In this document: in pieces, positions 28,424-64,000 of the stretch | How positions within the stretch are numbered: position 1 is the first letter of the stretch | Layout: the number at the start of each line of letters is the position of its first letter | Virus record (IMG/VR): IMGVR_UViG_2609459856_000007 | Location: 28,436-92,435 of that record | Source: a virus | Lineage: Duplodnaviria > Heunggongvirae > Uroviricota > Caudoviricetes | DNA: 64,000 nucleotides | Strand: one strand, 5' to 3' | Program-made: the position numbers and the translations under genes | The notes under the pieces: model-generated | The model's input: only the letters and a program-made list of their open reading frames with translations | The model's database searches: none | What the model was told of the DNA's origin: nothing

Positions 28424-28455
28424 AATTATCAACCTGCGTGTTTTGATTTTATATG

Positions 28456-31981: not shown

Positions 31982-31983
31982 TC

Positions 31984-32385
31984 GTGCGTAACTGGCTAAT
32001 GAATGGCGGACAATGGTTCTTCATGCTGGACACTGATCAGGAAATATTAGCCTGGGCGCTGGTGGAGCTGGTAAAGCGTCTGCCCTATATCATTGAGTTG
32101 AACACCGGGCAAGAAACTATCGTTATAGCCCATGCCGACTATCCGGATAATGAATACCAATTCGGTAAGGAGGTGCCGCTTTTCAACGTTGTCTGGGCGC
32201 GCGAGCGTATCAGTGATTCGATGGATGATATTGGTGGCGAAATTTCGGGCGCAGATCGTTTTATCTTTGGTCACACTCCGGTGAAAAGCCCGAAGACATT
32301 CTGGAATCAGCAGTATATCGACACTGGTGCCGTATTTTGCGGAAACCTGACATTGATGAAAGTGAAAGGTGATGGTGCAGCATGA
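31984..32385 (+). pseudogene. ppp: 5'-truncated lambda-type Ser/Thr protein phosphatase (C-terminal half only)
   Basis: [10 protein letters not shown]...IVIAHADYP...FIFGHTP...[15 protein letters not shown] aligns to C-terminal half of lambda phosphatase; GDxHG/GDxxDR/GNHE motifs absent; GTG start 3 nt after AAA+ stop. Confidence 0.6.
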
Positions 32386-49405: not shown

Positions 49406-50047
49406 ATGGATAAGAAAATATGCGTTGTTTCGATGAGCGTCGGCAAACCGGCGTCAATGACTGCTGCATGGATCAATAACGAGCTGATAATGGCTGAGCG
49501 GACCAGCTACCCTGAACGCCGCCGCGACATGGAACTCCAGCTGCTGCGCGAATTGCGAGAAAAAGAGGAAAAGGGTTTTATCGTGCTGGTGGAAGAGGAA
49601 AACAGCTTTATTACTGGTCGAGTTGGCCAGCGTGTAAGGTTGCGCGATCCCTTCATGAACGGCAGGCCGGTACTAATTGAGGCAATGCAGATTTATAAGG
49701 AGCTGGAACGCCAGAAAGCAATCAAGTTACCGCGCAAGGAATCCGGCAAATACATCCTCCACCAAAGCATCTTCGATTCCGAACACGATAAAAAAGGCGA
49801 TGAATTTTTCAACATCAATTGGAGCGAAATAACGACAGAGCATGTTCTGACGTTACTCTGTTGCTTTGCGACGGAATACAACAACGTTGCCAGCGCCGAC
49901 TACATCAGGGCAATGGCTTGTGAAGTGGATAGTCGTGATGACTCATCGCTGATAGCGTCATATATAAACATCATCAAGAAAACTCAAATTATGGGATGCG
50001 CTAGAGTTCCTCAAGGAATACTCACCGGAAAGAATAATATTCTATAA
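49406..50047 (+). CDS. hypothetical protein at P1 mat position
   Basis: RBS GGGG before ATG 49406; ORF track start 49379 is an upstream GTG; assigned by position. Confidence 0.45.
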   Translation: MDKKICVVSMSVGKPASMTAAWINNELIMAERTSYPERRRDMELQLLRELREKEEKGFIVLVEEENSFITGRVGQRVRLRDPFMNGRPVLIEAMQIYKELERQKAIKLPRKESGKYILHQSIFDSEHDKKGDEFFNINWSEITTEHVLTLLCCFATEYNNVASADYIRAMACEVDSRDDSSLIASYINIIKKTQIMGCARVPQGILTGKNNIL

Positions 50048-50144
50048 CCTACGAAGGTTATTTGTTACTTTCTGCGTAAACCTACAACTAACCTTCCTAA
50101 GTTAAGGAAGGTATTTATCATGAAGTGTAGACATAAGCGTATTA

Positions 50145-51155
50145 TTACATGGGCTTAACCACAACCTTTCCGTATATATCAAGTTTTGAATGTAATACGT
50201 TGACGTGAGACAATTCTTTATTCGAACTAACTTTATCTAAAATTATATTTTTATCTTTTTCAGTCATGTTATACCCTAAGGTAATTTGCTTGAATGCAGA
50301 AAAAGGAATTTTCTTTAAGTTAATTTCATGATAGTCATGAAAAACATCAGGATACTCATTTAATAGGCAGTCATCAATCGATGGAGAGACAATGCTTCCT
50401 ATTTTTCTCTCGCAATCAGCCAATGGAAAAATAATTCTACTTTCATTTTCAGGAAGCCACTCTTCACCTTTTGTATAAAGAAGCCTATTAATAAAAAGCT
50501 CGCGAACTGAATCTCGATTTAAGATCCCATGCAATGTATTATCTTTATTCTTTATATCTATATTCCTCGATGGCGCAGGATAGCCATTAAATCGCACAGC
50601 GCCTTTATAATAGGTTACAGATGCTCTATCTTCTGGATTATAACTAACATCACACGGCCGATATATTTTGAAAAAATCGTGTGTTTCATCGAAAACTACA
50701 GCAAACCCCTTTCCTATCGATGCATAATGATTCCACATGTGTAGATTGCAATCACTTTTTGATAGAGAGAACACACCAAGATGACAGCTTACGGCTTCTA
50801 CTAAATAATCGTTAAGGTACGTTACTATTTCTTGGAGTTTAGATTCATCATATGAATCCATTGAGGTAAAACCTTCATTGATTAACAAGTGTGGAAAATC
50901 CTCTCCGTATCGTTTCCCGCAAGGTTTTAAATAATACTCTAACTCTTGTATAGATGGGACATAAGATGGATCTCGTTGCATTTTCTTAAATTCATTTCTA
51001 GCCCATGCGTAATCGGCTGGTGAAAATTTATTAAAAAATGGAAGAAGTCGCGACTCACTCGACGGATCATTAAGATACTTTGGTTGCGTTGCTCTAAAGA
51101 AACCATCCTCCAGACAAGATGTTCTAATGTGCATGCCCGGCCAAGGTTTATCCAT
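50145..51155 (-). CDS. DUF2971-like protein, candidate abortive-infection/defence protein
   Basis: KYLNDPSSE and LGVFSLS...LHMWNHYA...KGFAVVFD resemble DUF2971 signature; visibly AT-rich relative to flanks. Confidence 0.5.
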   Translation of the reverse strand: MDKPWPGMHIRTSCLEDGFFRATQPKYLNDPSSESRLLPFFNKFSPADYAWARNEFKKMQRDPSYVPSIQELEYYLKPCGKRYGEDFPHLLINEGFTSMDSYDESKLQEIVTYLNDYLVEAVSCHLGVFSLSKSDCNLHMWNHYASIGKGFAVVFDETHDFFKIYRPCDVSYNPEDRASVTYYKGAVRFNGYPAPSRNIDIKNKDNTLHGILNRDSVRELFINRLLYTKGEEWLPENESRIIFPLADCERKIGSIVSPSIDDCLLNEYPDVFHDYHEINLKKIPFSAFKQITLGYNMTEKDKNIILDKVSSNKELSHVNVLHSKLDIYGKVVVKPM

Positions 51156-51237
51156 ATAACTCTCGCCTATATATTTAACTAACACTGTATGTCGATCCTG
51201 TTGTTTAAGCCCATATCATATGGGCTTTAAATGATTA

Positions 51238-51486
51238 TTAATCAGCATTCAGAAGCAATGCGTTATCTATGATGATCTGCTCCCATTCTTCGAATGCCCG
51301 ATCGCGGACACCTTGGGGAACACTGTTAGTTTTGAAATCGACGACCGTCCGCCATTTCCCGTCCGGGCGGTACATGCGCAGAGCTTTACTTCCCCCTTCC
51401 CTGCGCACCTCAACGTTATGCTTGTCAGCAAACTCTTGTAATGCTCGTAGCGTCCCATGCTTTACTGTGTAGTATCGCTTTTTCAA
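51238..51486 (-). CDS. small HicA-like fold protein lacking the catalytic His
   Basis: NVEVRREGGSKALRMYRPDGKWRTVVDF resembles HicA core with His replaced by Ala; TTG start with GGAGAG RBS. Confidence 0.35.
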   Translation of the reverse strand: MKKRYYTVKHGTLRALQEFADKHNVEVRREGGSKALRMYRPDGKWRTVVDFKTNSVPQGVRDRAFEEWEQIIIDNALLLNAD

Positions 51487-51584
51487 GTTTTCTCTCCAGC
51501 CTGTGCCAAGGCTTCAACTTCCAAATCGTAAGACTCAAACTCATAGTCCTGGTCGTCAACTTCTTCAGGCACTGGCAGTAAATG

Positions 51585-51923
51585 CTAGGCTGAGTATATC
51601 TGACCATTATCAAAACGCTCCTGGCTGTAGAGCGTCGCGGCTATGAGTGTTAGCGCCGGGCGGTCATAACGGTAAATTTTGCGAACGTCACGGTCAACGA
51701 GACGACCGAAATTACCATAACCGCGCTCCAGTAATAATTTTTTAATTTCCGGCCAGTATGGGCCATAGCTGCGGTACAGACGGGGATTTTTCAGTAATCG
51801 CCCGCGTAGCCCTGACAGGAAGAAATCAACGTATTCGTCTTCTGTCTTTCCTAACAACGCTGTACGGAGTACCGCTTCAAGATATGTTTTATTCGGTTTT
51901 ATTGTATCAGATAGTGTGGCCAT
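51585..51923 (-). CDS. hypothetical protein
   Basis: 112-aa ORF in same-strand cluster. Confidence 0.4.
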   Translation of the reverse strand: MATLSDTIKPNKTYLEAVLRTALLGKTEDEYVDFFLSGLRGRLLKNPRLYRSYGPYWPEIKKLLLERGYGNFGRLVDRDVRKIYRYDRPALTLIAATLYSQERFDNGQIYSA

Positions 51924-51956
51924 ATTATGCGACGCCCGGCGAACCGGGCGCTCCTG

Positions 51957-53324
51957 TTATGCGTATTGTTGGATGACGGCCAGAACGTCCGCCACGTTGT
52001 GTTTTGTCTCGATAATCCACCAGTTACCCGGGAAATCGCTGTTCTTTGCCTTCGCTGGCAGCCAGCGAGCGCCGAATTTCGCCTTGATTGCGTCTTTCGC
52101 ACGGAAAAGAATGCCTTTCATGCCGGACGCCTCCTGAAGCCCAAATACCTCGCCAGCGGCGAATTTTGGTGCGTACATCATCTTCAGGTCGGCGGTGGAT
52201 ACGCGATAATTCAGACCAAGAGACTGAGCTATGCTGGTGGCATCACCCTGTATTGATGATAACTCTTCTTGTTTCTCGTTTCTGGCGGCAATTTCTTCCT
52301 CCGTGATGTTGCCAAGGGCCAGGTTTATCCGATCAGCGTCGGCCTGTTTCTCTTCATCGGTGCGCCCGGCAAGAACCGTGTTAATTCTCTGCAATATCTC
52401 CACATGATTCTTGCGCATGCTGAGCAATTCCGGCGTAACATCGTTAAGAGCCACCAGCCCAAGGATGGCAAGGTCGGAAAACATTGATACCAGGTTGTAG
52501 GTCATGCGATAGCTGAGTTGGCCATAGGCTGATGGCAACTGCACCGCATCCATTTGATAGGCATCCATAAATTTAGAGCCGTCGTTTACGACATCCGCAA
52601 TTGCCGGTGTGATTTTCCCTGTGGTGGCGGCCTCCCTGATTGCTGTTACCCACGATTGAGTCAGCGCGGCGACTGCATGATTCAGATTGGCTTTCCGTTC
52701 TGCTGCAATGCGCGCGCTTGCTGCGTCCATTGCCTGCTTGATCTCGTCTTTATTGCTGTAAATGCCAATGGGACCAAACTGTGTTGTGGTGATCTCATAA
52801 TCTGACGCCCGGAACTCATTGGTACCGAAAATGGCATTGGTGACCTCAAGTTCAGAATCCCCGTTACGAGTAGCCCCCTGACTTGTTTTCTCCGGCATTT
52901 TTGCGATCGCATCCGCTATTTTCTCCTGAATTGCTTCAGGGGATAGCGTATCTCCGTATGACGCGATTACATCGCTATAATTGGATCCAAACAGTTCAGT
53001 CAGGAATACTTCTGCCAAACGGACCTGGCGGTTATTCCCTTCCGACATCATACCAAGCACCCATTTAGCAATTGACGACTTCAGCGCGCCGTCACGGCGA
53101 TCCGGGTAAACCGCATGCTTCAGTGGGTCCGTATAGGTACCAACAAAATCAATGCTATAGCCTGACTCTGTAGTCTGAACGCCGTATGAGTCAGTGATTT
53201 TGATCATGCCGCGCTGCTGGAAACGGTAGAAATCGTCACAGGAAATGATGTCGTTAATCCCGGCGATGGAGACGCCACCACTGATTTTCTGCATAACAGC
53301 ATCTTCATCGGGAGTTACATCCAC
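51957..53324 (-). CDS. hypothetical protein (455 aa)
   Basis: No nucleotide-binding or nuclease motif seen; start overlaps upstream gene by 10 nt. Confidence 0.5.
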   Translation of the reverse strand: MDVTPDEDAVMQKISGGVSIAGINDIISCDDFYRFQQRGMIKITDSYGVQTTESGYSIDFVGTYTDPLKHAVYPDRRDGALKSSIAKWVLGMMSEGNNRQVRLAEVFLTELFGSNYSDVIASYGDTLSPEAIQEKIADAIAKMPEKTSQGATRNGDSELEVTNAIFGTNEFRASDYEITTTQFGPIGIYSNKDEIKQAMDAASARIAAERKANLNHAVAALTQSWVTAIREAATTGKITPAIADVVNDGSKFMDAYQMDAVQLPSAYGQLSYRMTYNLVSMFSDLAILGLVALNDVTPELLSMRKNHVEILQRINTVLAGRTDEEKQADADRINLALGNITEEEIAARNEKQEELSSIQGDATSIAQSLGLNYRVSTADLKMMYAPKFAAGEVFGLQEASGMKGILFRAKDAIKAKFGARWLPAKAKNSDFPGNWWIIETKHNVADVLAVIQQYA

Positions 53325-54046
53325 CTGTTATCCAGCGTCTTCACATCCCAGTTACCCGATTTGGTGCCTTTGAAGGTAAAGATGATCTCCACGTCTGCGC
53401 GCTGGCTGTCGAAGTCCAGCGACTTAATGCGAACGATATCACCGGCACAATCGTAGTATTGGCCTACACGCCATGAGCGATCGCCGATAACAAGGAACTC
53501 ACTCGCATGGTTAACCAGGTCAGGATCAACATCCAGAATGCCTTTATTTATTGCATCCTCCACCAGCGGGCGCAGGCGTTTGATATCCGTCGCGGCCTTC
53601 TGAGTACGGTTCAATAATTTCTCATAGCGGGAGATGGCTTGAGAGATATTAGCCTTGCGCTGAATGGCGCTTTTCAACGACGCGCGATACTGTGCTAACA
53701 ACATACGGTCTGTGTGATGGACACTCCCCCAGCGGGCCTTCCAGTCTGCGTTATCAGCTGCTTTGGCCATTACCGCCTGTTTGAATTTAGCTACCTCGGC
53801 GGTGGTCTTTTCAAATTCCGCTTTGCTTCGCTCTAATTCAGCGGTAAGTACCTCCACATCCTCACCAGCTGCGTGCTGCGCCTTGATGTAGTTCTGAAGG
53901 TCGATAGTAGCCTGTTCTTTCTGGCGAGCGCGTTGCGCGGCTTTCGCCTTATCCATTTGAACCTGCATCATTGCCAGACGTTCACCGTCATCCTTCGCGG
54001 TATACATCTGCATTTCGATCATATCATTGGCGTCGGCGTTCTCCAT
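53315..54046 (-). CDS. hypothetical protein with N-terminal coiled coil
   Basis: ORF track 53315..54106 (TTG); first ATG at 54046. Confidence 0.45.
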   Translation of the reverse strand: MENADANDMIEMQMYTAKDDGERLAMMQVQMDKAKAAQRARQKEQATIDLQNYIKAQHAAGEDVEVLTAELERSKAEFEKTTAEVAKFKQAVMAKAADNADWKARWGSVHHTDRMLLAQYRASLKSAIQRKANISQAISRYEKLLNRTQKAATDIKRLRPLVEDAINKGILDVDPDLVNHASEFLVIGDRSWRVGQYYDCAGDIVRIKSLDFDSQRADVEIIFTFKGTKSGNWDVKTLDNRWM

Positions 54047-54093
54047 TTCTGACTTATCTGAACGGAGGATATCGGAGATCCTGGGCTTCGTTT

Positions 54094-54116
54094 GGGAAAC
54101 GTACAATATTGTACGG
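54094..54116. repeat. left copy of imperfect inverted repeat, contains perfect 16-bp palindrome CGTACAATATTGTACG
   Basis: GGGAAACGTACAATATTGTACGG; inverted partner at 54282-54305. Confidence 0.4.
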
Positions 54117-54281
54117 TTGCGCTATTGCGGTAGGGTGTACTCCAACGCTATACGGTCTTTGGCAGACCTTTAGGGAAATGAGATAAGCTAAATGCGATAA
54201 GAGAAAAGCAATAACTTAAAGGCAATAGCTGATTACGATAAATCAATCAGTTACTTATCAGTATCGATTAAAAAATGCTCC

Positions 54282-54305
54282 TAACGTACAATAATTTCCG
54301 TTTCC
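54282..54305. repeat. right copy of imperfect inverted repeat
   Basis: CTAACGTACAATAATTTCCGTTTCCC; shares CGTACAATA and inverted GGGAAACG/CGTTTCCC with 54094-54116. Confidence 0.4.
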
Positions 54306-54731
54306 CAAACCGCCCCCTCCGATCCCGCGCCGGTCTACCCGCAGACGCATCTGAGTTTTCTGGCAAACGTCTATAACCAGAAGGCGCGTGAGTTCTACCA
54401 TTGTTATGGCGTACAGTTGATCGACGCGGCGTATGAAGCGCATCAAGAAAAGGGCGATGTGCCTGTGATGATCACCAAGCATTGCCTGCGTTTTGCCTTT
54501 AATCTTTGCCCGAAACAGGCGAAAGGTAACATCAAAAGCTGGAAAGCGACGCCAATGCAACTGGTCAACGGTGATGAGGTGCTGACGCTGAAATTTGGCT
54601 GTCGCCCGTGTGAAATGCACGTTATCGGCAAGATTAAAGATCACATTCTTAAAATGCCGCTGCCGGGCAGCGTGGTGGGTTCCGTCAGTCCGGAAGATCC
54701 GATGAAAACGCTGCCGAAGCGTAAACCTTAA
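54285..54731 (+). pseudogene. C-terminal fragment of a peptidase U32-family protein (5'-truncated)
   Basis: Frame open from 54285 without credible start; resembles U32 C-terminal region from memory (HCYGVQLIDAAYEAHQEKGDVPVMITKHCLRFAFNLCPKQAKGNIKSW); N-terminal catalytic part absent. Confidence 0.4.
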
Positions 54732-54835
54732 TCCTTTGCGACATCAGCCCGGTGGCGTTTACCGGGCCTTTGTGTTGGTATTTATTTCCGCCGGTTAACG
54801 CCTGGCCCAAAGCCGACATCCGGCGAGGTGTCCGC

Positions 54836-54964
54836 TTAATGCGCTTTAAACCCCGCCGCAGTCATGAGCAGGCGAAAAAACATGCCCACCGCCGCCAGCG
54901 CCAACACGCTGCCGCCCCAAAGGATGACCAGCCACATCAGGCGTTTCCAGAGAGAATGTTGCAT
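54836..54964 (-). CDS. CydX-like small membrane subunit (42 aa)
   Basis: MQHSLWKRLMWLVILWGGSVLALAAVGMFFRLLMTAAGFKAH; start overlaps subunit II stop by 1 nt. Confidence 0.5.
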   Translation of the reverse strand: MQHSLWKRLMWLVILWGGSVLALAAVGMFFRLLMTAAGFKAH

Positions 54965-55974
54965 CAGTGATACCCCTCGCCATGTTGCACTTTGCCGCGA
55001 AACACATAGTAACTCCAGAAGGTGTACACCAAAATCACCGGAATGATGAGCAGCGCACCGACCAGCATAAACCCCTGACTCTGGGCGGGGGCGGCTGCCT
55101 GCCAGAGGGTAACCGAAGGCGGAATAATGTGCGGCCAGATACTGATGCCCAGGCCGCTGAAACCAAGGAAGATTAGCCCGAGCGTCAGCACAAACGGAAA
55201 CGTGTGGTTTTCCGGACGACCCAGTGTGCGCCATAACCAGACGCTGAACGCGATCACCAGCACCGGAACCGGCAGCAGATAGCCCAGGTTGGGAAGCGTA
55301 AACCAACGGTCGGCGATCGCCGGATGCGCTAACGGTGTCCAGAGGCTGATTATCGCAATTGACAACAGCAGGGCCAGCAGCAGTTTTTTCGCGACGCTGC
55401 GCATTTTATCCTGAAGCGGATTTTCGCTTTTCATCACCAGCCAGGTTGCGCCTAAGAGCGCATAGGCAACGACCAGTCCGACGCCACAGAACAGAGTGAA
55501 GGGGGTTAACCAGTCGAACGGCCCGCCGCTGTAGCTGCGACCGGTCACCGGGAAACCGTTGATCACTGCGCCAACCACGATCCCTGGGGCGAAGGTAGCC
55601 AGAATCGACCCGCCGAGAAAAGCATGGTCCCAAAATGGGCGGTGGGCTGGCGTGGCCTTGAAGCGAAACTCGAAGGCCACGCCGCGAAAAATCAGTCCGA
55701 TCAGCATCAGCGTCAACGGAATGGTCAGCGCATCGATAATAACCGCATAGGCCATCGGGAAAGCCCCAAACAGCCCCGCGCCGCCCAGCACCAGCCAGGT
55801 TTCATTACCGTCCCACACCGGCGCGACGCTATTGACCATCACATCACGATCCTCTGCGTTTCGTGTGACAGGAAACAGAATGCCAATACCCAAATCGAAT
55901 CCATCCATCACGATATACATTAGCGTGGCGAAAACGATGATCACAAACCAGATAACCGATAAATCAATACCCAT
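54964..55974 (-). CDS. cytochrome bd-type quinol oxidase subunit II (CydB/CioB-like)
   Basis: 336-aa polytopic membrane protein coupled to subunit I. Confidence 0.8.
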   Translation of the reverse strand: MGIDLSVIWFVIIVFATLMYIVMDGFDLGIGILFPVTRNAEDRDVMVNSVAPVWDGNETWLVLGGAGLFGAFPMAYAVIIDALTIPLTLMLIGLIFRGVAFEFRFKATPAHRPFWDHAFLGGSILATFAPGIVVGAVINGFPVTGRSYSGGPFDWLTPFTLFCGVGLVVAYALLGATWLVMKSENPLQDKMRSVAKKLLLALLLSIAIISLWTPLAHPAIADRWFTLPNLGYLLPVPVLVIAFSVWLWRTLGRPENHTFPFVLTLGLIFLGFSGLGISIWPHIIPPSVTLWQAAAPAQSQGFMLVGALLIIPVILVYTFWSYYVFRGKVQHGEGYH

Positions 55975-57374
55975 TAGCGATGTGCCTTATGTTGAGAATC
56001 GAGGACGGCGGCGGAAAGCGGCCTGGCGGGGGTGCCCGGCGGCGGCGCGGAATCATCTTCCAGCGGGCCTTTGCGGATCAGGCGAATCATATAGCTGTAG
56101 CCGACGCCAAAGACTGAGCTGTAGACAACAAAGAAAGCGAGCAACGAAATGCTCATATGTAAATCGCCGTGGGCCGACACCGCGTCGGCAGTACGCTGTA
56201 AACCGTACACCACCCACGGCTGGCGTCCGACCTCAGTGGTCACCCAGCCCGCGAGAATGGCGATGAGCCCCGAGGGTCCCATCCATAGCGCAAAGCGCAG
56301 GAACGGGCGCGAGGTGTAGAGGCGCTGCCTGTAGCGCAGCCAGAGCGCACAGAGCCCTAGCAGGATCATTAACATGCCCAGGCCGGCCATGATGCGAAAC
56401 GACCAGAACACGATCGTCGAGTGAGGGCGATCCTCTTTGGCGAATTCTTTTAGCGCCGGAACCTGTTTATCCAGACTGTGCGTCAGGATCAGGCTTCCCA
56501 GCGCCGGGATCGCCAGTCCATAGCGGGTGCGTTCCTGTTCCATATCCGGCCAGCCAAACAGCAGCAGCGGCGTGGGCTCACCCGGCGGGTTTTCCCAGTG
56601 ACCTTCAATCGCGGCGATTTTGGCTGGCTGATGTTTCAGGGTGTTCAGCCCATGCATATCGCCGATTAACGCCTGCACCGGCGCGACAATAAGCGTCATC
56701 CACAACGCCATGGAAAACATCGTGCGAATGGCTGGCGTTGCGTTGCCGCGCAGCAGATGCCAGGCTGCCGAAGCGCCGACAAACAGCGCGCTACTGAGAA
56801 ATGCGGCGACGGACATATGCAGCAGCCGATAAGGGAACGAAGGATTGAAGATAACGGCGAACCAGTCCACGGGCACAACCTGGCCGTTGACGATCTCAAA
56901 CCCCTGCGGCGTTTGCATCCAACTGTTAGACGCCAGGATCCAGAAGGTGGAAATGAGGGTGCCAAGCGCCACCATGCAGGTTGAGAAGAAATGCAAACCC
57001 GGACCGACTTTATTCCAGCCAAACAGCATCACCCCGAGGAATCCGGCTTCAAGGAAGAAAGCGGTCAGCACCTCATAGGTAAGCAACGGCCCGGTAATAC
57101 TGCCTGCGAATTCCGAAAAACCGCTCCAGTTGGTGCCGAACTGATAGGCCATCACCAGACCGGAAACCACGCCCATGCCGAAATTTACGGCGAATATTTT
57201 TGACCAGAAGTGGTACAACGAGCGCCAGACCGGATTTTTGCTTTTTAGCCAAAGGCCTTCCAGCACCGCCAGATAACTGGCAAGCCCAATGGTGATCGCC
57301 GGAAAGATAATGTGAAATGAAACTGTAAAGGCGAACTGGATCCTTGCCAGGTGATACGCATCAAGACCAAACAT
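55974..57374 (-). CDS. cytochrome bd-type quinol oxidase subunit I, short Q-loop form (CydA/CioA-like)
   Basis: N-terminus MFGLDAYHLARIQFAFTVSFHIIFPAITIGLA; GWxxxExGRQPW near C-terminus; 466 aa. Confidence 0.85.
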   Translation of the reverse strand: MFGLDAYHLARIQFAFTVSFHIIFPAITIGLASYLAVLEGLWLKSKNPVWRSLYHFWSKIFAVNFGMGVVSGLVMAYQFGTNWSGFSEFAGSITGPLLTYEVLTAFFLEAGFLGVMLFGWNKVGPGLHFFSTCMVALGTLISTFWILASNSWMQTPQGFEIVNGQVVPVDWFAVIFNPSFPYRLLHMSVAAFLSSALFVGASAAWHLLRGNATPAIRTMFSMALWMTLIVAPVQALIGDMHGLNTLKHQPAKIAAIEGHWENPPGEPTPLLLFGWPDMEQERTRYGLAIPALGSLILTHSLDKQVPALKEFAKEDRPHSTIVFWSFRIMAGLGMLMILLGLCALWLRYRQRLYTSRPFLRFALWMGPSGLIAILAGWVTTEVGRQPWVVYGLQRTADAVSAHGDLHMSISLLAFFVVYSSVFGVGYSYMIRLIRKGPLEDDSAPPPGTPARPLSAAVLDSQHKAHR

Positions 57375-57497
57375 GCCTGACTCCGCATTAAAAATTGATT
57401 CAGCGCAATTCTAAGCGTGTGAGGCAATGAGGGGCAGAAACAGAACAGACATATTTAACCATAACAGTTTGCAAATCGTTGTGAATTTTATTCACTG

Positions 57498-57956
57498 TTA
57501 TACACTGCGAGGCTCACCTGCATTGACCGACGAGAAACCAGAATAAAAAATACCAGCGTCTGGCTGAACAACTTTGCGAACAGATCGCCTCTGGCGTCTG
57601 GCGACCCGGCGACGCGCGGCCTCTTTGCGGTGGGAGTCGGAGTCCATTGCGCTGGCTACGCGCCCGGCAGCAACGAAGTCATAAAGCATATCCTGTGCAT
57701 GCTCATCTACGGTGTCATCACGTAGCGGAATGCGGGCGTATTGTTCTTTGGTAAACACGACTGCACGGTAATTTGAGTGCGGGATTGCATTCATACGTGC
57801 CGTGATAGTGGCTTCATCTGCCAGTTTAAGGGCATCGCGCATAACTGGAGTGCCATCAGTACCAAGAACAGGAGCACCTCCCACGCTAACGCGCGGGCCC
57901 CGAATCTCACCGTTCTGAAACCACAACAAAAAAACATCAGGAATAAAAAACACCAC
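57498..57956 (-). CDS. hypothetical protein (start uncertain)
   Basis: ORF-track ORF; Arg-rich C-terminus. Confidence 0.3.
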   Translation of the reverse strand: MVFFIPDVFLLWFQNGEIRGPRVSVGGAPVLGTDGTPVMRDALKLADEATITARMNAIPHSNYRAVVFTKEQYARIPLRDDTVDEHAQDMLYDFVAAGRVASAMDSDSHRKEAARRRVARRQRRSVRKVVQPDAGIFYSGFSSVNAGEPRSV

Positions 57957-58454: not shown

Positions 58455-58706
58455 ATGCCCAGTATCATTTTGTCTGACACCAGTGCAAGCGTCAGTGAGC
58501 TGAAAAAAAATCCGATGGCAACTGTCAGTGCCGGAGAGGGGTATCCTGTTGCCATTCTTAACCGGAATCAGCCAGCATTCTACTGTGTCCCTGCTGAGCT
58601 CTATGAAAGAATGCTTGATGCCTTGGATGACCAAGAGCTGGTAAAACTGGTTACTGAACGCAGCAGTCAGCCTCTGCATGATGTGGACCTGGACAGTTAT
58701 TTATGA
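58455..58706 (+). CDS. stbD: RelB/StbD-family antitoxin
   Basis: 83 aa, MPSIILSDTSASVSELKKNPMATV...; RBS AGAGG; coupled to toxin. Confidence 0.7.
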   Translation: MPSIILSDTSASVSELKKNPMATVSAGEGYPVAILNRNQPAFYCVPAELYERMLDALDDQELVKLVTERSSQPLHDVDLDSYL

Positions 58707-58990
58707 CTTATACAGTAAAATTCCGGGATGATGCACTGAAAGAATGGCTCAGACTGGACAAGACCATTCAGCAGCAGTTCGCAAAAAAACTGAAAAAATG
58801 CAGTGAAAATCCTCATATAGCTTCTGCAAAACTACGTGGATTAAAGGACTGCTATAAAATCAAACTTCGCGCATCAGGTTTTCGTCTGGTTTATCAGGTT
58901 ATTGATGATATGTTAATTATTGCGGTCGTCGCAGTAGGTAAACGTGAACGCAGCAACGTTTATCATCTCGCCAGTGAACGGATGAAATAA
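58703..58990 (+). CDS. stbE: RelE/StbE-family toxin
   Basis: 95 aa; FRLVYQVIDDMLIIAVVAVGKRERSNVY RelE/ParE-fold pattern; ATGA overlap. Confidence 0.7.
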   Translation: MTYTVKFRDDALKEWLRLDKTIQQQFAKKLKKCSENPHIASAKLRGLKDCYKIKLRASGFRLVYQVIDDMLIIAVVAVGKRERSNVYHLASERMK

Positions 58991-59849: not shown

Positions 59850-62800
59850 TCAGAAACGATATTCCACACTCAACATGGCAGATGTATTATGGTATCCATG
59901 TTCTCCAAGTTGAATGCCTGCATCAGCCCGGAATGCTACTTCTGGTGTTATCATTCCCACAACACCACCATTTATTTCTCCGATATCACGCGCACCATCC
60001 TGGTATATACTTACACCATTCATACTGGTGCCGAAAACACGACTATTGTGCAACCAGTGTGCCTCCACAAATGGTCTGAACGGAACCGCATACCGCGTAT
60101 TTTTACCGTTTTTGCTGGTAAGCCATGTTCTTGCTCCCAGGCGGGTGAGAATATTTCCGTTACCGGTATTTTCAATACTGGTTCCGTTACTTTCATGATA
60201 TTTGTCTGATTTTACATTCATCCGGACAACCTGAAGCTGCGGCTGAACATACCATTCATGACTTCCCTTGTAATTGTCGGTAAACTCTCCAGCCTTCCAT
60301 GAATATCCTGCTTCCAGAGATACCGTAAACCCTTTTGACTTCCATGACTCAGCAGGCAGCCGTTCTCCATTTATATGATTATCAAACCAGCTGTATTGCA
60401 GCCAGCTATCAAGATAAGAACCATTGTGTGTTTCATCATTGGCATACCATGTTGCATAAAGACCCGCTGTGTATCCATTCATTCTTCCTTCCGAATGGTA
60501 TCCGGTGCTCAGGGCATTCGTACTGTTATTATTATGACCATAGCCAGCCATCATACCTGTATGCCAGCGATCGGTACCATTCAGGCTCCACTGAGCTATA
60601 TCTCCCCCTATTAACACAACGTAGCTATTCCCCCGGGTTCTCAGCTGACTACTGTTGTCACGCCAGCGATTATGTTTTCCTTTATTATACATCCAGATAC
60701 CTGCTTCATTTTCTTCTCCTGTCATGTGGCTGATATACAACTCCTGTCCCTGTCGTTCATACAGATTCGTTACAAACAGATTATTTGCAGCAGCAATACT
60801 GGCAACATAGCTACCTGCCTCAGGACGCAAATTATTATCATGGCTTTCCGGTACAGCTTCAGGTTGTGGTACAGGAATGTCTTTTCTGCTAATCAGATAC
60901 CAGTTAGTGCTGTTAATCCCCTGACCACGTTTCAGTATGTAATCATAAGCTCCGGCTGTAATACGTTCCGTCTGAATGAATTCAGCATTATCAGCATTGC
61001 CACTGACGTGAATCACTTCAATCCCATTAAGTGTCTCTGCACCAGTACCACCGGCCTGAGTAACAGCGACACGGGTACGGCCACTGGCATTACCTTTAAT
61101 CACCAGACGATCTGTTTTCGAATTGTCACCACCTGTTTCTGTCTGGAGGAGAATAAGTCCATTTCTGCCAGTGTAATTCCCTCCGACAGTCAGTATATTA
61201 CCCGGCATATATGTAGTGAGATCGACTATACCACTATTGCTCAGATTTCCTGCAACGCCCCCAAACCCGGAGAGTTTGCCCTGCTCTTCAACAATGACCT
61301 GGTTACTGCCGAGCATCACCGGTGAATCTGCGTTCCCCAGTATCACTGTCCCCTGAATAATATCTGTCATCCCGGTCCATTTTGCGTTATCGCTAATGTT
61401 CAGTGCACCTGCTCCCGTCTTGCGAACATTACCATAACCACTGATATTGTTGGTAAGCTGCCATGCTGATGTACTGTTCAGAGTTAATGTGCCATAGTTA
61501 TCAACAAAGGCTGTCCCCAGATTATCAGCCGTGGATACAGCCAAATGAGCCCCCTTATTCACGGTAAAAACACCGGAAAAATTACGATTATTACCCGTTA
61601 TATCAAGCATTCCCCCATTTATGTTCAGAGAACCATCCCCTGCAATAGTACCTGCAGATTCTCCTCCATTATTCAGTATCAGACTTCCGCCATGAATGTT
61701 CAGCACAGAGCCTGCAGCCGTCAGTAGTTTGCTTATTGTCTGAGGATACCCATTCATATCCAGTTCTGCGCCACGGGATAAATATAAATACTCAGTCCGA
61801 CCAAGAGCATCAGGTGCAGCAAGAATTAATACGCCAGATTTAACCTCTGTATTTCCTGTATAATTGTTTGTTGCAGAAAGTATAAGAGTACCATTACCTG
61901 ATTTTGTCAGACTTTTGCCGTCCCAGCCATCATATAATAAAGGTGAAAGATTATCGGAAAGAGAAACGCCTATGTTCAGAGTGGCATCTTTTTCTATATT
62001 AAAGGTTCCATATCCCATCCCTTTTGTATTATTCCATCTCAGCATGGATATCAGTTTGTTATCGTCGTCATTTAAAGACGTATAAACATAACTTTCAGCA
62101 CCTTCTGTCAGTAATACATTGTATTGTACAATGTGACTATTATCAGCGATCGAGATACCTGTGTCTGACGACAATAATGTGTAATAGTCCTGAGTCCAGT
62201 TCTTAATTGATGTGTCTATATTAAGCCATGAATCACTTTTTAATGTAATAGTATTTGCGTGAACATTAGCATTTCCTACAGACAGGTTCATAGATGCGTC
62301 TTCATCAATACTTATATTTCCGTTAAAAATGGAGTTCTTGCCTGACAGATAAACAGATGAGCCATTCCCAATCATTAGCCCACCATTAATTGCTGTTGCG
62401 TTATTGATGTTTTTAATAATTAATTCATTTGTACCATTAACAGGTATACTAGCTAGTTTAATATCACCATTAATCACAGAATCTGAATAAATATCTAATG
62501 AATTATACCCGCCAGAAAAAATCATTGATGTATTATAAGCATCTTTTTGGCTATTATATAATCCTGAAAGATTACCATGATTATTAATATGGATATCTTC
62601 TCCATAAACAGAGCAACCACCGTCGGGGCCATATCCCCCCTGAACAATACCGTTATTATTCAAAGTGATTTGATTTCCAGAAATAGCATCTCCCCCTTGT
62701 TTTATTCCATATCCTCCAGATATCATGTTGTCGTTAGTAATGAAAAGATTACTACCATTAATACCATCACCACCGTTTACGCCATTACCGCCCAATATTC

Positions 62801-63347
62801 CTCCGGAATTATGCACTGTAATATTGCTACCGGTTACACCGGAACCACCTGTCCCACCTACATCATCACCTCCGTATATACTTCTGTAATTATCAACTAT
62901 AATATCATCCCCGCTTAACCCTGCACCTCCGCTACTTCCTGAGCCACCAAGACCATTACCCCCATATACATTTCTGTAATTGTTTATAGATATTTTGTTG
63001 CCACTAACAGCAATTCCACCATTATATCCATCTCCTCCCCAAACACTACCATTATTATTTAGCGTAAAGTTTTCACCGTAGACACCTGCACCACCGATTG
63101 ATGTATTGCTTGTTCCTCCTTTGATGTTAATACTGCTTTCAACAGATAGTATATTTTGAGTATAACTTGTTTTATACGGCACGCTGATATTAAGCGCCGC
63201 GTTTCCATCAACACCTGTAATACTCCTGGTTATACTTTCAGGTATACCATTACCATTCAGTTGTATTGTTTGCGCACCAGAAAAATGAGACTGCACAGAA
63301 TAAAGTATACTGACCAGAAATTGTAAAATTCGTATATTCTTATTCAT
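59850..63347 (-). CDS. autotransporter adhesin (type Va)
   Basis: Signal peptide MNKNIRILQFLVSILYSVQSHFSGAQT; Gly/Asn-rich beta-helical passenger repeats; C-terminal beta-barrel ending ...SVEYRF. Confidence 0.85.
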   Translation of the reverse strand: MNKNIRILQFLVSILYSVQSHFSGAQTIQLNGNGIPESITRSITGVDGNAALNISVPYKTSYTQNILSVESSINIKGGTSNTSIGGAGVYGENFTLNNNGSVWGGDGYNGGIAVSGNKISINNYRNVYGGNGLGGSGSSGGAGLSGDDIIVDNYRSIYGGDDVGGTGGSGVTGSNITVHNSGGILGGNGVNGGDGINGSNLFITNDNMISGGYGIKQGGDAISGNQITLNNNGIVQGGYGPDGGCSVYGEDIHINNHGNLSGLYNSQKDAYNTSMIFSGGYNSLDIYSDSVINGDIKLASIPVNGTNELIIKNINNATAINGGLMIGNGSSVYLSGKNSIFNGNISIDEDASMNLSVGNANVHANTITLKSDSWLNIDTSIKNWTQDYYTLLSSDTGISIADNSHIVQYNVLLTEGAESYVYTSLNDDDNKLISMLRWNNTKGMGYGTFNIEKDATLNIGVSLSDNLSPLLYDGWDGKSLTKSGNGTLILSATNNYTGNTEVKSGVLILAAPDALGRTEYLYLSRGAELDMNGYPQTISKLLTAAGSVLNIHGGSLILNNGGESAGTIAGDGSLNINGGMLDITGNNRNFSGVFTVNKGAHLAVSTADNLGTAFVDNYGTLTLNSTSAWQLTNNISGYGNVRKTGAGALNISDNAKWTGMTDIIQGTVILGNADSPVMLGSNQVIVEEQGKLSGFGGVAGNLSNSGIVDLTTYMPGNILTVGGNYTGRNGLILLQTETGGDNSKTDRLVIKGNASGRTRVAVTQAGGTGAETLNGIEVIHVSGNADNAEFIQTERITAGAYDYILKRGQGINSTNWYLISRKDIPVPQPEAVPESHDNNLRPEAGSYVASIAAANNLFVTNLYERQGQELYISHMTGEENEAGIWMYNKGKHNRWRDNSSQLRTRGNSYVVLIGGDIAQWSLNGTDRWHTGMMAGYGHNNNSTNALSTGYHSEGRMNGYTAGLYATWYANDETHNGSYLDSWLQYSWFDNHINGERLPAESWKSKGFTVSLEAGYSWKAGEFTDNYKGSHEWYVQPQLQVVRMNVKSDKYHESNGTSIENTGNGNILTRLGARTWLTSKNGKNTRYAVPFRPFVEAHWLHNSRVFGTSMNGVSIYQDGARDIGEINGGVVGMITPEVAFRADAGIQLGEHGYHNTSAMLSVEYRF

Positions 63348-63593
63348 ACTGTTTTTTCTTTAGTGATGCATTTTTTATCAACCACACAAGCACATTATTT
63401 CATTGATACTAATCACATCAGGATGAATGTTTTTTCTCAATAGAAATAAGTGTCTTTATTCCTTACCAATTTATTCTGGTTATTCCTCTTATCCAGACGT
63501 CTCGTGATACTCCCTGTATTTATTATAGAGTATATATATGTACTGCGTTTAAATCATGAAGACGACAACCTGTTTTACATAAATTATTCCTAA

Positions 63594-64000
<407 letters not shown>

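Follow-up and report, generated by a model that had tools for sequence, protein, structure and literature searches.

A DUF2971 gene as a single-gene defence candidate beside P1 lxc and the remains of ulx and darB in a P1-like remnant

Introduction

Phage P1 has a virion-packaged anti-restriction system, Dar, in which DarB and Ulx act as components of a counter-defence (PMC12810830). Phage SJ46 is the stated source of CapRelSJ46 (PMC9712102). The domain family DUF2971 has been connected with phage defence by Aristaios, a single-gene DUF2971 protein of 316 amino acids (aa) encoded by the lactococcal plasmid pUCCL641_199 (Grafakou et al., 2024, PMC11381338). Its phenotype is of the abortive infection (Abi) type, in which transcription by the phage and production of its proteins are blocked (PMC11381338; PMC13064643; PMC12967558), and an ADP-ribosyltransferase (ART)-like fold was seen in it by its authors (PMC11381338). 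According to a further description (PMC12522546), DUF2971 is a DarT-like ART that has inserts between β1 and β2 and between β4 and β5, an ExE motif and a Tyr whose conservation is strict. A set of 145 untested candidates for phage defence, recovered from within BREX, DISARM or type I restriction-modification (R-M) loci, includes PDC-S31 (bioRxiv 10.1101/2024.01.29.577857). The subject of the present analysis is a group of five open reading frames (ORFs), the last of them a DUF2971 gene, at 50145-54106 of a stretch of 64,000 nucleotides (positions 28,436 to 92,435 of the IMG/VR virus record IMGVR_UViG_2609459856_000007, Caudoviricetes), the whole of which is called the window below.

The five ORFs had been taken, in an initial annotation, for an undescribed five-gene defence or Abi system. 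Four of them proved to be lxc, ulx and darB of P1 or what is left of these genes, and cargo and fragments assort independently. The stretch is the ordinary P1 order of mat, cargo slot and lxc-ulx-darB in a decayed P1-like remnant, and the DUF2971 gene that ends the group can credibly be put forward as a candidate for a single-gene defence. To the reading as a whole, namely P1 backbone and pseudogene debris together with one imported gene for a DUF2971 defence protein of ART type, we assign a probability of about 0.6. The features on which the argument turns are the following, in window coordinates.

49406-50047, plus strand: mat, 213 aa, left flank of the slot
49927-51233: variable cargo segment of the mat-lxc slot, in place of P1 res-IS5-mod
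50091-50112: hairpin with an 8-bp stem, between the convergent mat and DUF2971 genes
50145-51185, minus strand: DUF2971 gene, 346 aa, probable GTG start; the sole true cargo gene
51204-51230: palindrome of 27 nt between the lxc stop and the DUF2971 start; cargo flank
51238-51486, minus strand: lxc (bof), 82 aa, C1 repressor modulator/co-repressor; P1 backbone, intact
51483-51923, minus strand: ulx, reduced by a nonsense codon to a 112-aa ORF at 51585-51923
51957-54081, minus strand: darB 3' remnant (pseudogene), DarB aa 1549-2255, split into two ORFs by a 1-nt deletion
51957-53324, minus strand: 455-aa ORF, part of the darB 3' remnant
53315-54106, minus strand: 263-aa ORF with a TTG start
54090-54310: element of 221 bp with 26-nt terminal inverted repeats (GTTTGGGAAACGTACAATATTGTACG), resembling a miniature inverted-repeat transposable element, at the darB breakpoint, where it borders the cyd insert
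57604-57872, minus strand: internal scrap of darB, DarB aa ~926-1023, beyond the cyd insert

Identity of four of the five ORFs

In the ORF listing, all five minus-strand ORFs were found where they had been reported, and so was the 10-nt overlap between the 455-aa and 263-aa ORFs. Comparison with phage genomes by megablast showed that the window from 51238 to 54081 is collinear with P1 9750-12594 at 98.0% identity, a region annotated in P1 as lxc, ulx and the 3' end of darB; with 49900-54300 as the query, 18 P1-like phages matched the lxc-ulx-darB stretch. The base-level alignment to P1 contains 56 mismatches and one gap, which is the loss of one T from a TTT run at ~53325-53327. Judged by these alignments, the 82-, 112-, 455- and 263-aa ORFs are almost certainly Lxc, Ulx and pieces of DarB. 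The 82-aa ORF is identical to P1 Lxc at 82 of 82 residues, matches phrog_2160 with an E value of 8e-57 and lies downstream of ulx as in P1. Its earlier label as a HicA-like protein has to be given up: neither Pfam nor PADLOC gave a hit at E≤1, and the protein is Lxc. The 112-aa ORF is Ulx, which has 146 aa in P1; it retains 97% identity to P1 over 146 codons, and its 146-aa frame is interrupted by a change of TGG to TAG at codon 113 (W113*), caused by C>T at 51586 and giving a stop codon at 51585-51587.

The two remaining ORFs were assigned to DarB by blastp, the 455-aa ORF to residues 1801-2255 (97.4% identity) and residues 10-259 of the 263-aa ORF to 1549-1798 (99.2% identity). Therefore, their 10-nt overlap is the footprint of a frameshift within one gene. 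The homology to darB ends at 54081, so that the 263-aa ORF starts (TTG) and runs for its first nine codons (54082-54106) in junction sequence, not darB. The 269-bp scrap at 57604-57872 is 96.3% identical to P1 14169-14437, in agreement with blastp of a 152-aa ORF. Searches of PHROGs returned an 'Ulx-like anti-restriction' family and DarB-type families, the profiles of which run consecutively over both ORFs. Weak matches of the 263-aa ORF (JetC/MukB-like, E 0.009; Par3 and TPR) were dismissed as coiled-coil or low-complexity noise once it had been identified as DarB 1549-1798.

The gene is broken at 54081/54082 by a cytochrome bd segment of ~3.5 kb (54082-57603), an insertion that severs the C-terminal pieces from the methyltransferase and helicase domains. 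In P1 DarB, the Pfam domains lie at 145-290 (N6-methylase), 833-911 (SNF2/ResIII) and 1455-1517 (Helicase_C), all of them before residue 1517, and from the full-length protein of ~2255 aa only aa 1549-2255 and a 98-aa scrap are left here. Because all recognisable domains of DarB are missing, no ATPase or methyltransferase signature had been noticed, and the earlier statement that the cluster has no recognisable signature holds only for a reading of the sequence alone, to which the homology to P1 is invisible; PHROGs names four of the five ORFs at once. In both sister plasmids, pEcoUTI1e and pLR-28_1, the stretch was called by the Prokaryotic Genome Annotation Pipeline (PGAP) an incomplete 'helicase' pseudogene without an N-terminus, and in pLR-28_1 it is also frameshifted. 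The 455-aa and 263-aa ORFs are pseudogene debris from the C-terminal third of DarB and partners of nothing. Strong homology to virion or otherwise characterised proteins was thus found for four of the five ORFs, with DarB and Ulx belonging to virion anti-restriction and Lxc being a co-repressor.

A sequencing error behind the frameshift and the nonsense codon is excluded by the same 1-nt darB deletion in pLR-28_1, in which the ulx nonsense codon is not shared, and by the occurrence of the exact 455-aa product on 622 contigs and of the exact 112-aa product on 149 contigs. That the 455-aa product is so common is explained by the clonal expansion of the lineage with the cyd insertion. Among P1-like loci of IMG/VR, ulx is intact in 69 of the 71 that could be assessed.

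The five ORFs as a presumed unit

With Lxc as the query, 80 loci were recovered from IMG/VR, 73 of which hold both lxc and mat. Nine IMG/VR loci carry a DUF2971 gene as cargo; darB is intact in 7/7 and ulx (146 aa) in 8/8 of those assessable, and therefore the 112-, 263- and 455-aa 'genes' do not exist in most carriers of this cargo. The DUF2971 gene of MH422554 likewise stands beside a full-length darB. In pLR-28_1, the darB frameshift and the cyd insert are the same as in the window, yet the slot is occupied by a CapRel (RelA/SpoT) gene. The five-ORF cluster is not a functional unit.

A new multi-gene defence or Abi system, composed either of all five ORFs or, as had also been proposed, of a 263/455 pair and a 112/82/DUF2971 trio, might be suggested by the tight packing of the ORFs on a shared strand next to a defence slot, and by the spread of the exact 455-aa product over 622 contigs. 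Such a system is scarcely credible for four ORFs that are 97-100% identical to P1 lxc, ulx and darB: a 1-nt deletion accounts for the 263/455 split and a nonsense codon for the length of 112 aa, carriers of DUF2971 elsewhere keep a darB of 2255 aa and a ulx of 146 aa, the same darB wreck lies beside different slot cargo, and the spread of the 455-aa product can be put down to the clonal cyd-insertion lineage. That spread, together with records in which the product is called a 'DarB domain protein', could also be explained if the C-terminal fragments of DarB were maintained for a function of their own, such as that of a module packaged in the virion or binding DNA. This is very improbable, considering that the promoter and the first ~1548 residues with all recognisable domains are gone, that the ORF is frameshifted and ulx has decayed too, and that only ~22 kb of P1 is present in the window, fused to SSU5-like DNA, so that at least this side of P1 is broken; the pseudogene call by PGAP points the same way.

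The mat-lxc slot

The P1-like backbone next to the slot is canonical, as had been stated, with cre-c8-ref-mat 96.9% identical to P1. Inside mat, at 49926, the homology to P1 breaks off, and it is taken up again at 51238, the stop codon of lxc; homology to pLR-28_1 also ends at 49926 and restarts at 51234. What replaces res-mod is thus only ~1.3 kb with one gene, not five genes as had been claimed. The res and mod region of P1 (3348-9749) has no counterpart in the window, which holds no type III R-M system of EcoP1I type. The DUF2971 gene is AT-rich, in accordance with the earlier description, since the GC content is 0.33-0.37 over 50000-51000 and ~0.47-0.52 in the flanks. No ORF of at least 50 aa was found between mat and the DUF2971 gene or between the DUF2971 gene and lxc.

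The claim that anti-phage cargo is kept in this slot was borne out, in that type III R-M, CapRelSJ46, SIR2, JukA and PIN proteins alternate there. Among described phages, the slot holds EcoP1I res-mod in P1, EcoP7 res-mod in P7, a RelA/SpoT protein of 373 aa in SJ46, a PIN_12 protein in JL22 and a pair of EAL and AraC proteins in Ro157c2YLVW, and it is empty in RCS47. The protein of SJ46, in which Y155 is present, shows 100% identity to a cargo cluster of IMG/VR. The census of the 73 IMG/VR loci with lxc and mat gave the following contents.

SIR2_2 protein (PDC-S25 / ThsA-like): 12 loci
DUF2971: 9 loci
GNAT acetyltransferase (202 aa): 9 loci
CapRel: 9 loci
empty slot: 8 loci
type III res-mod: 8 loci
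PIN_12: 6 loci
JukA with a helix-turn-helix and a KilAC protein: 4 loci
EAL and AraC: 3 loci
YaaC-like protein and nucleoside-2-deoxyribosyltransferase-like protein: 3 loci
small lipoprotein (135 aa): 2 loci

At least ten alternative fillings are seen over the IMG/VR loci (L018-L097) and the phages JL22, Ro157c2YLVW and RCS47. Those without a defence label (GNAT, the YaaC pair, EAL and AraC, the lipoprotein) could be anti-phage or lysogenic-conversion cargo.

The left boundary of the slot lies within mat. The last ~40 codons of mat (49927-50047) are inside the exchanged segment and have diverged from P1 mat in DNA, and the C-terminus of Mat is conserved as protein despite this divergence (…VPQGILTGKNNIL here, …VPHGILTGKGNYF in P1). 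The 642-nt gene is annotated as Mat in MH422554 and as a hypothetical protein at the mat position in pEcoUTI1e. Mat has 213 aa here and 250 aa in the annotation of P1, because the annotated start codons differ.

Between the convergent mat and DUF2971 genes, the hairpin at 50091-50112 is a possible terminator with a weak T-run. The palindrome at 51204-51230 looks perfect (13+13, TTTAAGCCCATAT/ATATGGGCTTTAA) and has no T-run. An inverted repeat (50143-50161 / 51202-51220, complementary at 16 of 19 positions) flanks the DUF2971 gene. It was considered as the mark of a mobile cassette and rejected, as no comparable repeat surrounds the homologues in four other contexts, and it is treated as local or due to chance.

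The DUF2971 gene and its relatives

The product of the cargo gene matches Pfam DUF2971 (PF11185) with 29.4 bits (E 2.1e-6), where the gathering cut-off is 22, and all 89 positions of the profile are covered by residues 150-251. It also matches phrog_1762. In PADLOC, four hidden Markov models (HMMs) of PDC-S31, a single-gene organisation, were matched with E values of 2e-16 to 2e-6, the best match covering part of the profile only (64 residues in one model, 118-324 in another). The terminal gene belongs, as had been proposed, to a family found in defence islands, recovered within BREX, DISARM or type I R-M loci.

Homologues begin with MLVKYYGL, and in them K4 is invariant and Y5 nearly so. Initiation at ATG 51155, which is used by PGAP in pEcoUTI1e and other NCBI records and gives 336 aa, was rejected on the ground that it drops the N-terminal β-strand with K4 and Y5; from the conserved N-terminus, GTG 51185 is the more likely start, with a product of 346 aa.

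An exhaustive homologue search gave 532 cluster representatives at E≤1e-3. At 36-54% identity, 57 homologues were collected from Enterobacterales, Vibrio, Shewanella and others, with 36 invariant columns, and PF11185 was detected in 48 of them. Of 5426 complete E. coli genomes, 62 carry the gene itself, and plasmids account for 63 of its 64 places; 89 copies of at least 95% identity are found on plasmids of Escherichia, Salmonella, Shigella and Klebsiella. None of the eight alleles in P1-like elements is broken, and the ratio of nonsynonymous to synonymous polymorphism (pN/pS) is 0.12 for the most divergent pair.

In four other contexts, the homologues stand alone on mobile elements; no neighbour is common to them, and none has a macrodomain partner. 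The contexts are the following.

Salmonella P2-like prophage (L012/L013 8001-9050): 46% identical, between gpV and gpS, on the opposite strand
Serratia: end of a prophage, beside smpB
Vibrio: conjugative plasmid, next to a PIN_12 protein
Klebsiella: AlpA/H-NS island

The Salmonella homologue, which lies between a gpV-like baseplate spike gene and a gpS-like tail-completion gene, is present in 121 blocks of the collection, and its position is presumably the orf30 moron site of P2. In the Vibrio cyclitrophicus plasmid (L016 8001-10100), the DUF2971 homologue is followed 42 nt on by the PIN_12 protein; the two thus stand together there and are alternating occupants of the P1 slot, as in JL22. The phage-plasmid SSU5 also holds a distant DUF2971 gene.

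Predicted ART fold of the DUF2971 protein

An AlphaFold2 model of the protein was obtained with a mean predicted local distance difference test (pLDDT) score of 89.8. It contains the core of the ART fold, a split β-sheet of six strands, and the values listed in the structure comparison were 7.2 for M. tuberculosis DarT, 7.0 for yeast Tpt1, 6.7 for Thermus DarT, 6.0 for Thermosipho DarTG, 5.7 for a Salmonella ART effector (7DN9), 5.5 for E. coli DarT1, and 5.3 each for mouse Tpt1 and TreX, with Scabin, LT, pertussis toxin and PARPs below TreX. Foldseek returned nothing significant with the model, and profile HMM searches of PDB sequences with a narrow (A2) and a broad (A3) alignment returned no ART; the link to ARTs is therefore structural only. 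A match to HP0721 (E=0.09) in the profile search falls in a helical insert and was set aside as chance.

The model runs from a β-strand at 29-31 through a long helical insert to β 136-142, a helix at 148-154, β 161-165 and β 189-199, and then through a second helical insert to β 248-254 and β 260-266, an order of strands and inserts that fits the description of DUF2971 in PMC12522546. In a broad alignment of 53 relatives at 23-50% identity, K4, D40, G137, W151, Y154, Y182, K239, W243, E248 and G304 are the same in all sequences, and conservation reaches at least 90% at R31 and E246; within the subfamily, S140 does not vary. From the model we infer a candidate ART core made up of R31 in β1, S140-x-S142 in β2, Y154 in the helix and E246-x-E248 in β5. 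No conserved His is available for motif I, for which R31, in the strand 29-31, would fit an R-type motif. Taken together, the model suggests that the DUF2971 protein is probably an enzyme of the ART fold.

Insertions and surrounding mosaic

The segment at 54082-57603 is GC-rich (~0.6), encodes cytochrome bd ubiquinol oxidase subunits I and II and a DUF2474 peptide, and replaces ~1.6 kb of darB. In pEcoUTI1e it is inverted relative to the window and pLR-28_1, and it is flanked there by two inverted copies of the 221-bp element, a pairing that would explain the inversion.

Positions 1-31,991 of the window are not P1 but DNA of an SSU5/pHCM2-like phage-plasmid, which encodes a DnaB-like helicase, a ligase, a primase, CobT and an AAA ATPase and is 83-86% identical to Klebsiella phages (e.g. 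pJN2-26) and 99% identical to E. coli plasmids (e.g. pYLPI6a). At ~31,983-31,991 it joins the middle of P1 ppp directly, with no insertion sequence (IS) at the joint, and this junction is spanned by no complete E. coli record in the collection searched. The window looks like a cointegrate of two types of phage-plasmid, in which ~22 kb of P1 is kept on this side. The P1 remnant is followed by a Phd/YefM-ParE toxin-antitoxin pair (58,455-58,990), an autotransporter of 1165 aa (pertactin/AC_1/β-barrel; 59,850-63,347) and an IS5-like end of ISKpn26 type (63,579-64,000).

Discussion

The DUF2971 protein would use NAD+ to ADP-ribosylate a target in a manner like DarT or Tpt1. The target might be a nucleic acid, as its structural neighbours DarT, Tpt1 and scabin suggest, or a core component of gene expression, as the phenotype of Aristaios suggests; the former is a tentative assignment. 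The helical inserts, the C-terminal α/β domain (~285-346) or both could sense a phage or keep the enzyme auto-inhibited until a phage cue arrives. Acting alone, with no antitoxin, the protein would be switched on by infection and halt phage gene expression (cf. Aristaios), an Abi-type defence by which the lysogen would be protected against other phages. Expression in the lysogen is probably provided by read-through from the lxc promoters, as suggested by the finding that no promoter of its own was detected. A role of the gene in anti-phage defence is marginally favoured. The full scheme, in which a self-contained sensor-plus-effector ART with a self-inhibited core answers a phage cue by ADP-ribosylation of nucleic acid and abortive infection and in which the slot serves as a compact defence hotspot, is possible rather than probable.

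Several points weigh against this interpretation. The canonical His of motif I is absent, no DarT model of PADLOC was matched at E≤1, and R31, S140, Y154, E246 and E248 were assigned to the ART motifs from the register of secondary structure, not by superposition. A lone ART toxin without an antitoxin needs auto-inhibition, which is hypothetical here. The link to Aristaios runs through the Pfam family only; no Lactococcus record was among the hits at E≤1e-3 when plasmids were searched with the window protein by tblastn, and a full-text literature search on DUF2971 gave no report of an E. coli member having been tested. In a sigma-70 scan, nothing resembling a promoter was seen ahead of the gene on the minus strand, and sites were fewer than in shuffled sequences. 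Location in the slot is no proof, as GNAT, EAL and AraC, and a lipoprotein without an obvious defence label are also found there.

ARTs of the Alt/Mod type of phage T4 are the model for a takeover effector used in phage infection. The main rival, though itself unlikely, is accordingly an active ART that serves the element, either as an effector of host takeover or anti-defence during P1 infection or as a plasmid-addiction toxin. The ART-like fold with a conserved ExE suits it as well, the neighbouring ulx and darB are anti-restriction genes, the slot also holds cargo that does not look defensive, and ~18% of DUF2971 proteins are predicted secreted effectors, Legionella lpg1268 being a putative one (PMC12522546). 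Against an element-serving effector, the slot carries validated defences (type III R-M and CapRelSJ46) besides the defence-family genes SIR2 and JukA, the family has been recovered within BREX, DISARM and type I R-M loci, the one tested member, Aristaios, is an Abi defence, and the protein has no signal for virion packaging or secretion; an addiction toxin would be expected to have a partner antitoxin, and none is present. A non-enzymatic or inert passenger, that is, a degenerate ART-like scaffold with no part in phage-host conflict, is quite improbable given the invariance of Y154 and E248 and the conservation of R31 and E246 at 90% or more among relatives of 23-50% identity, the intact state of all alleles with pN/pS 0.12, and the repeated presence of the gene in moron slots of mobile elements that are not related.

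The result corrects a false lead, in which a homology-free reading of ORFs made a broken darB, a ulx with a nonsense codon and the known lxc look like a multi-gene immunity system. What remains is one 346-aa gene on P1-like plasmids, present in ~1% of complete E. coli genomes. DUF2971 is a very large family, and its sole phenotype so far comes from one distant lactococcal member. If the full scheme given above is true, the DUF2971 protein would be the first member from Gram-negative bacteria that is open to experiment in a family found in ~5,900 species, and the unlabelled occupants of the slot (GNAT, the YaaC pair, EAL and AraC, PIN_12) would by extension be new anti-phage genes as well. E. 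coli offers phage collections and genetic tools with which the substrate and trigger of this ART-like family could be defined. The survey of the slot supplies a few more candidates of one or two genes.

Comparison with known systems

The four backbone ORFs agree with P1 DarB, Ulx and Lxc (annotation of Lobocka et al., 2004; Piya et al., 2017, as cited in PMC12810830) at 97-100% identity and in P1 order. Unlike in P1, darB here has lost residues 1-1548 except for a scrap and is frameshifted, ulx ends at codon 113, and lxc alone is intact. EcoP1I/EcoP7I and CapRelSJ46 share with the DUF2971 gene the same mat-lxc slot and the character of compact, AT-rich, horizontally exchanged cargo, whereas their proteins and mechanisms, namely DNA restriction and pyrophosphorylation of tRNA on a capsid trigger, are unrelated to those of DUF2971.

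DarT of the DarTG system, a thymidine ADP-ribosyltransferase of single-stranded DNA, is encoded next to the macrodomain protein DarG, whereas no macrodomain is found beside the DUF2971 gene or in the four other contexts. Compared with DarT, the DUF2971 protein also has an Arg that would stand where motif I has His, and it is enlarged by two sizeable helical inserts and by an additional domain at the C-terminus; it is DarT-like at most and no member of DarTG. PDC-S31 (Payne et al.) likewise consists of solitary DUF2971 genes and differs in context, which is here the slot of a phage-plasmid. Aristaios and the window protein, compared by description, are alike in the DUF2971 domain, the single-gene organisation and the ART-like predicted fold; Aristaios comes from a Gram-positive host and has a demonstrated phenotype, whereas the role of the window protein is predicted. 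The DUF2971 gene described here adds one member to a candidate family that was already known, at a location of a known type.

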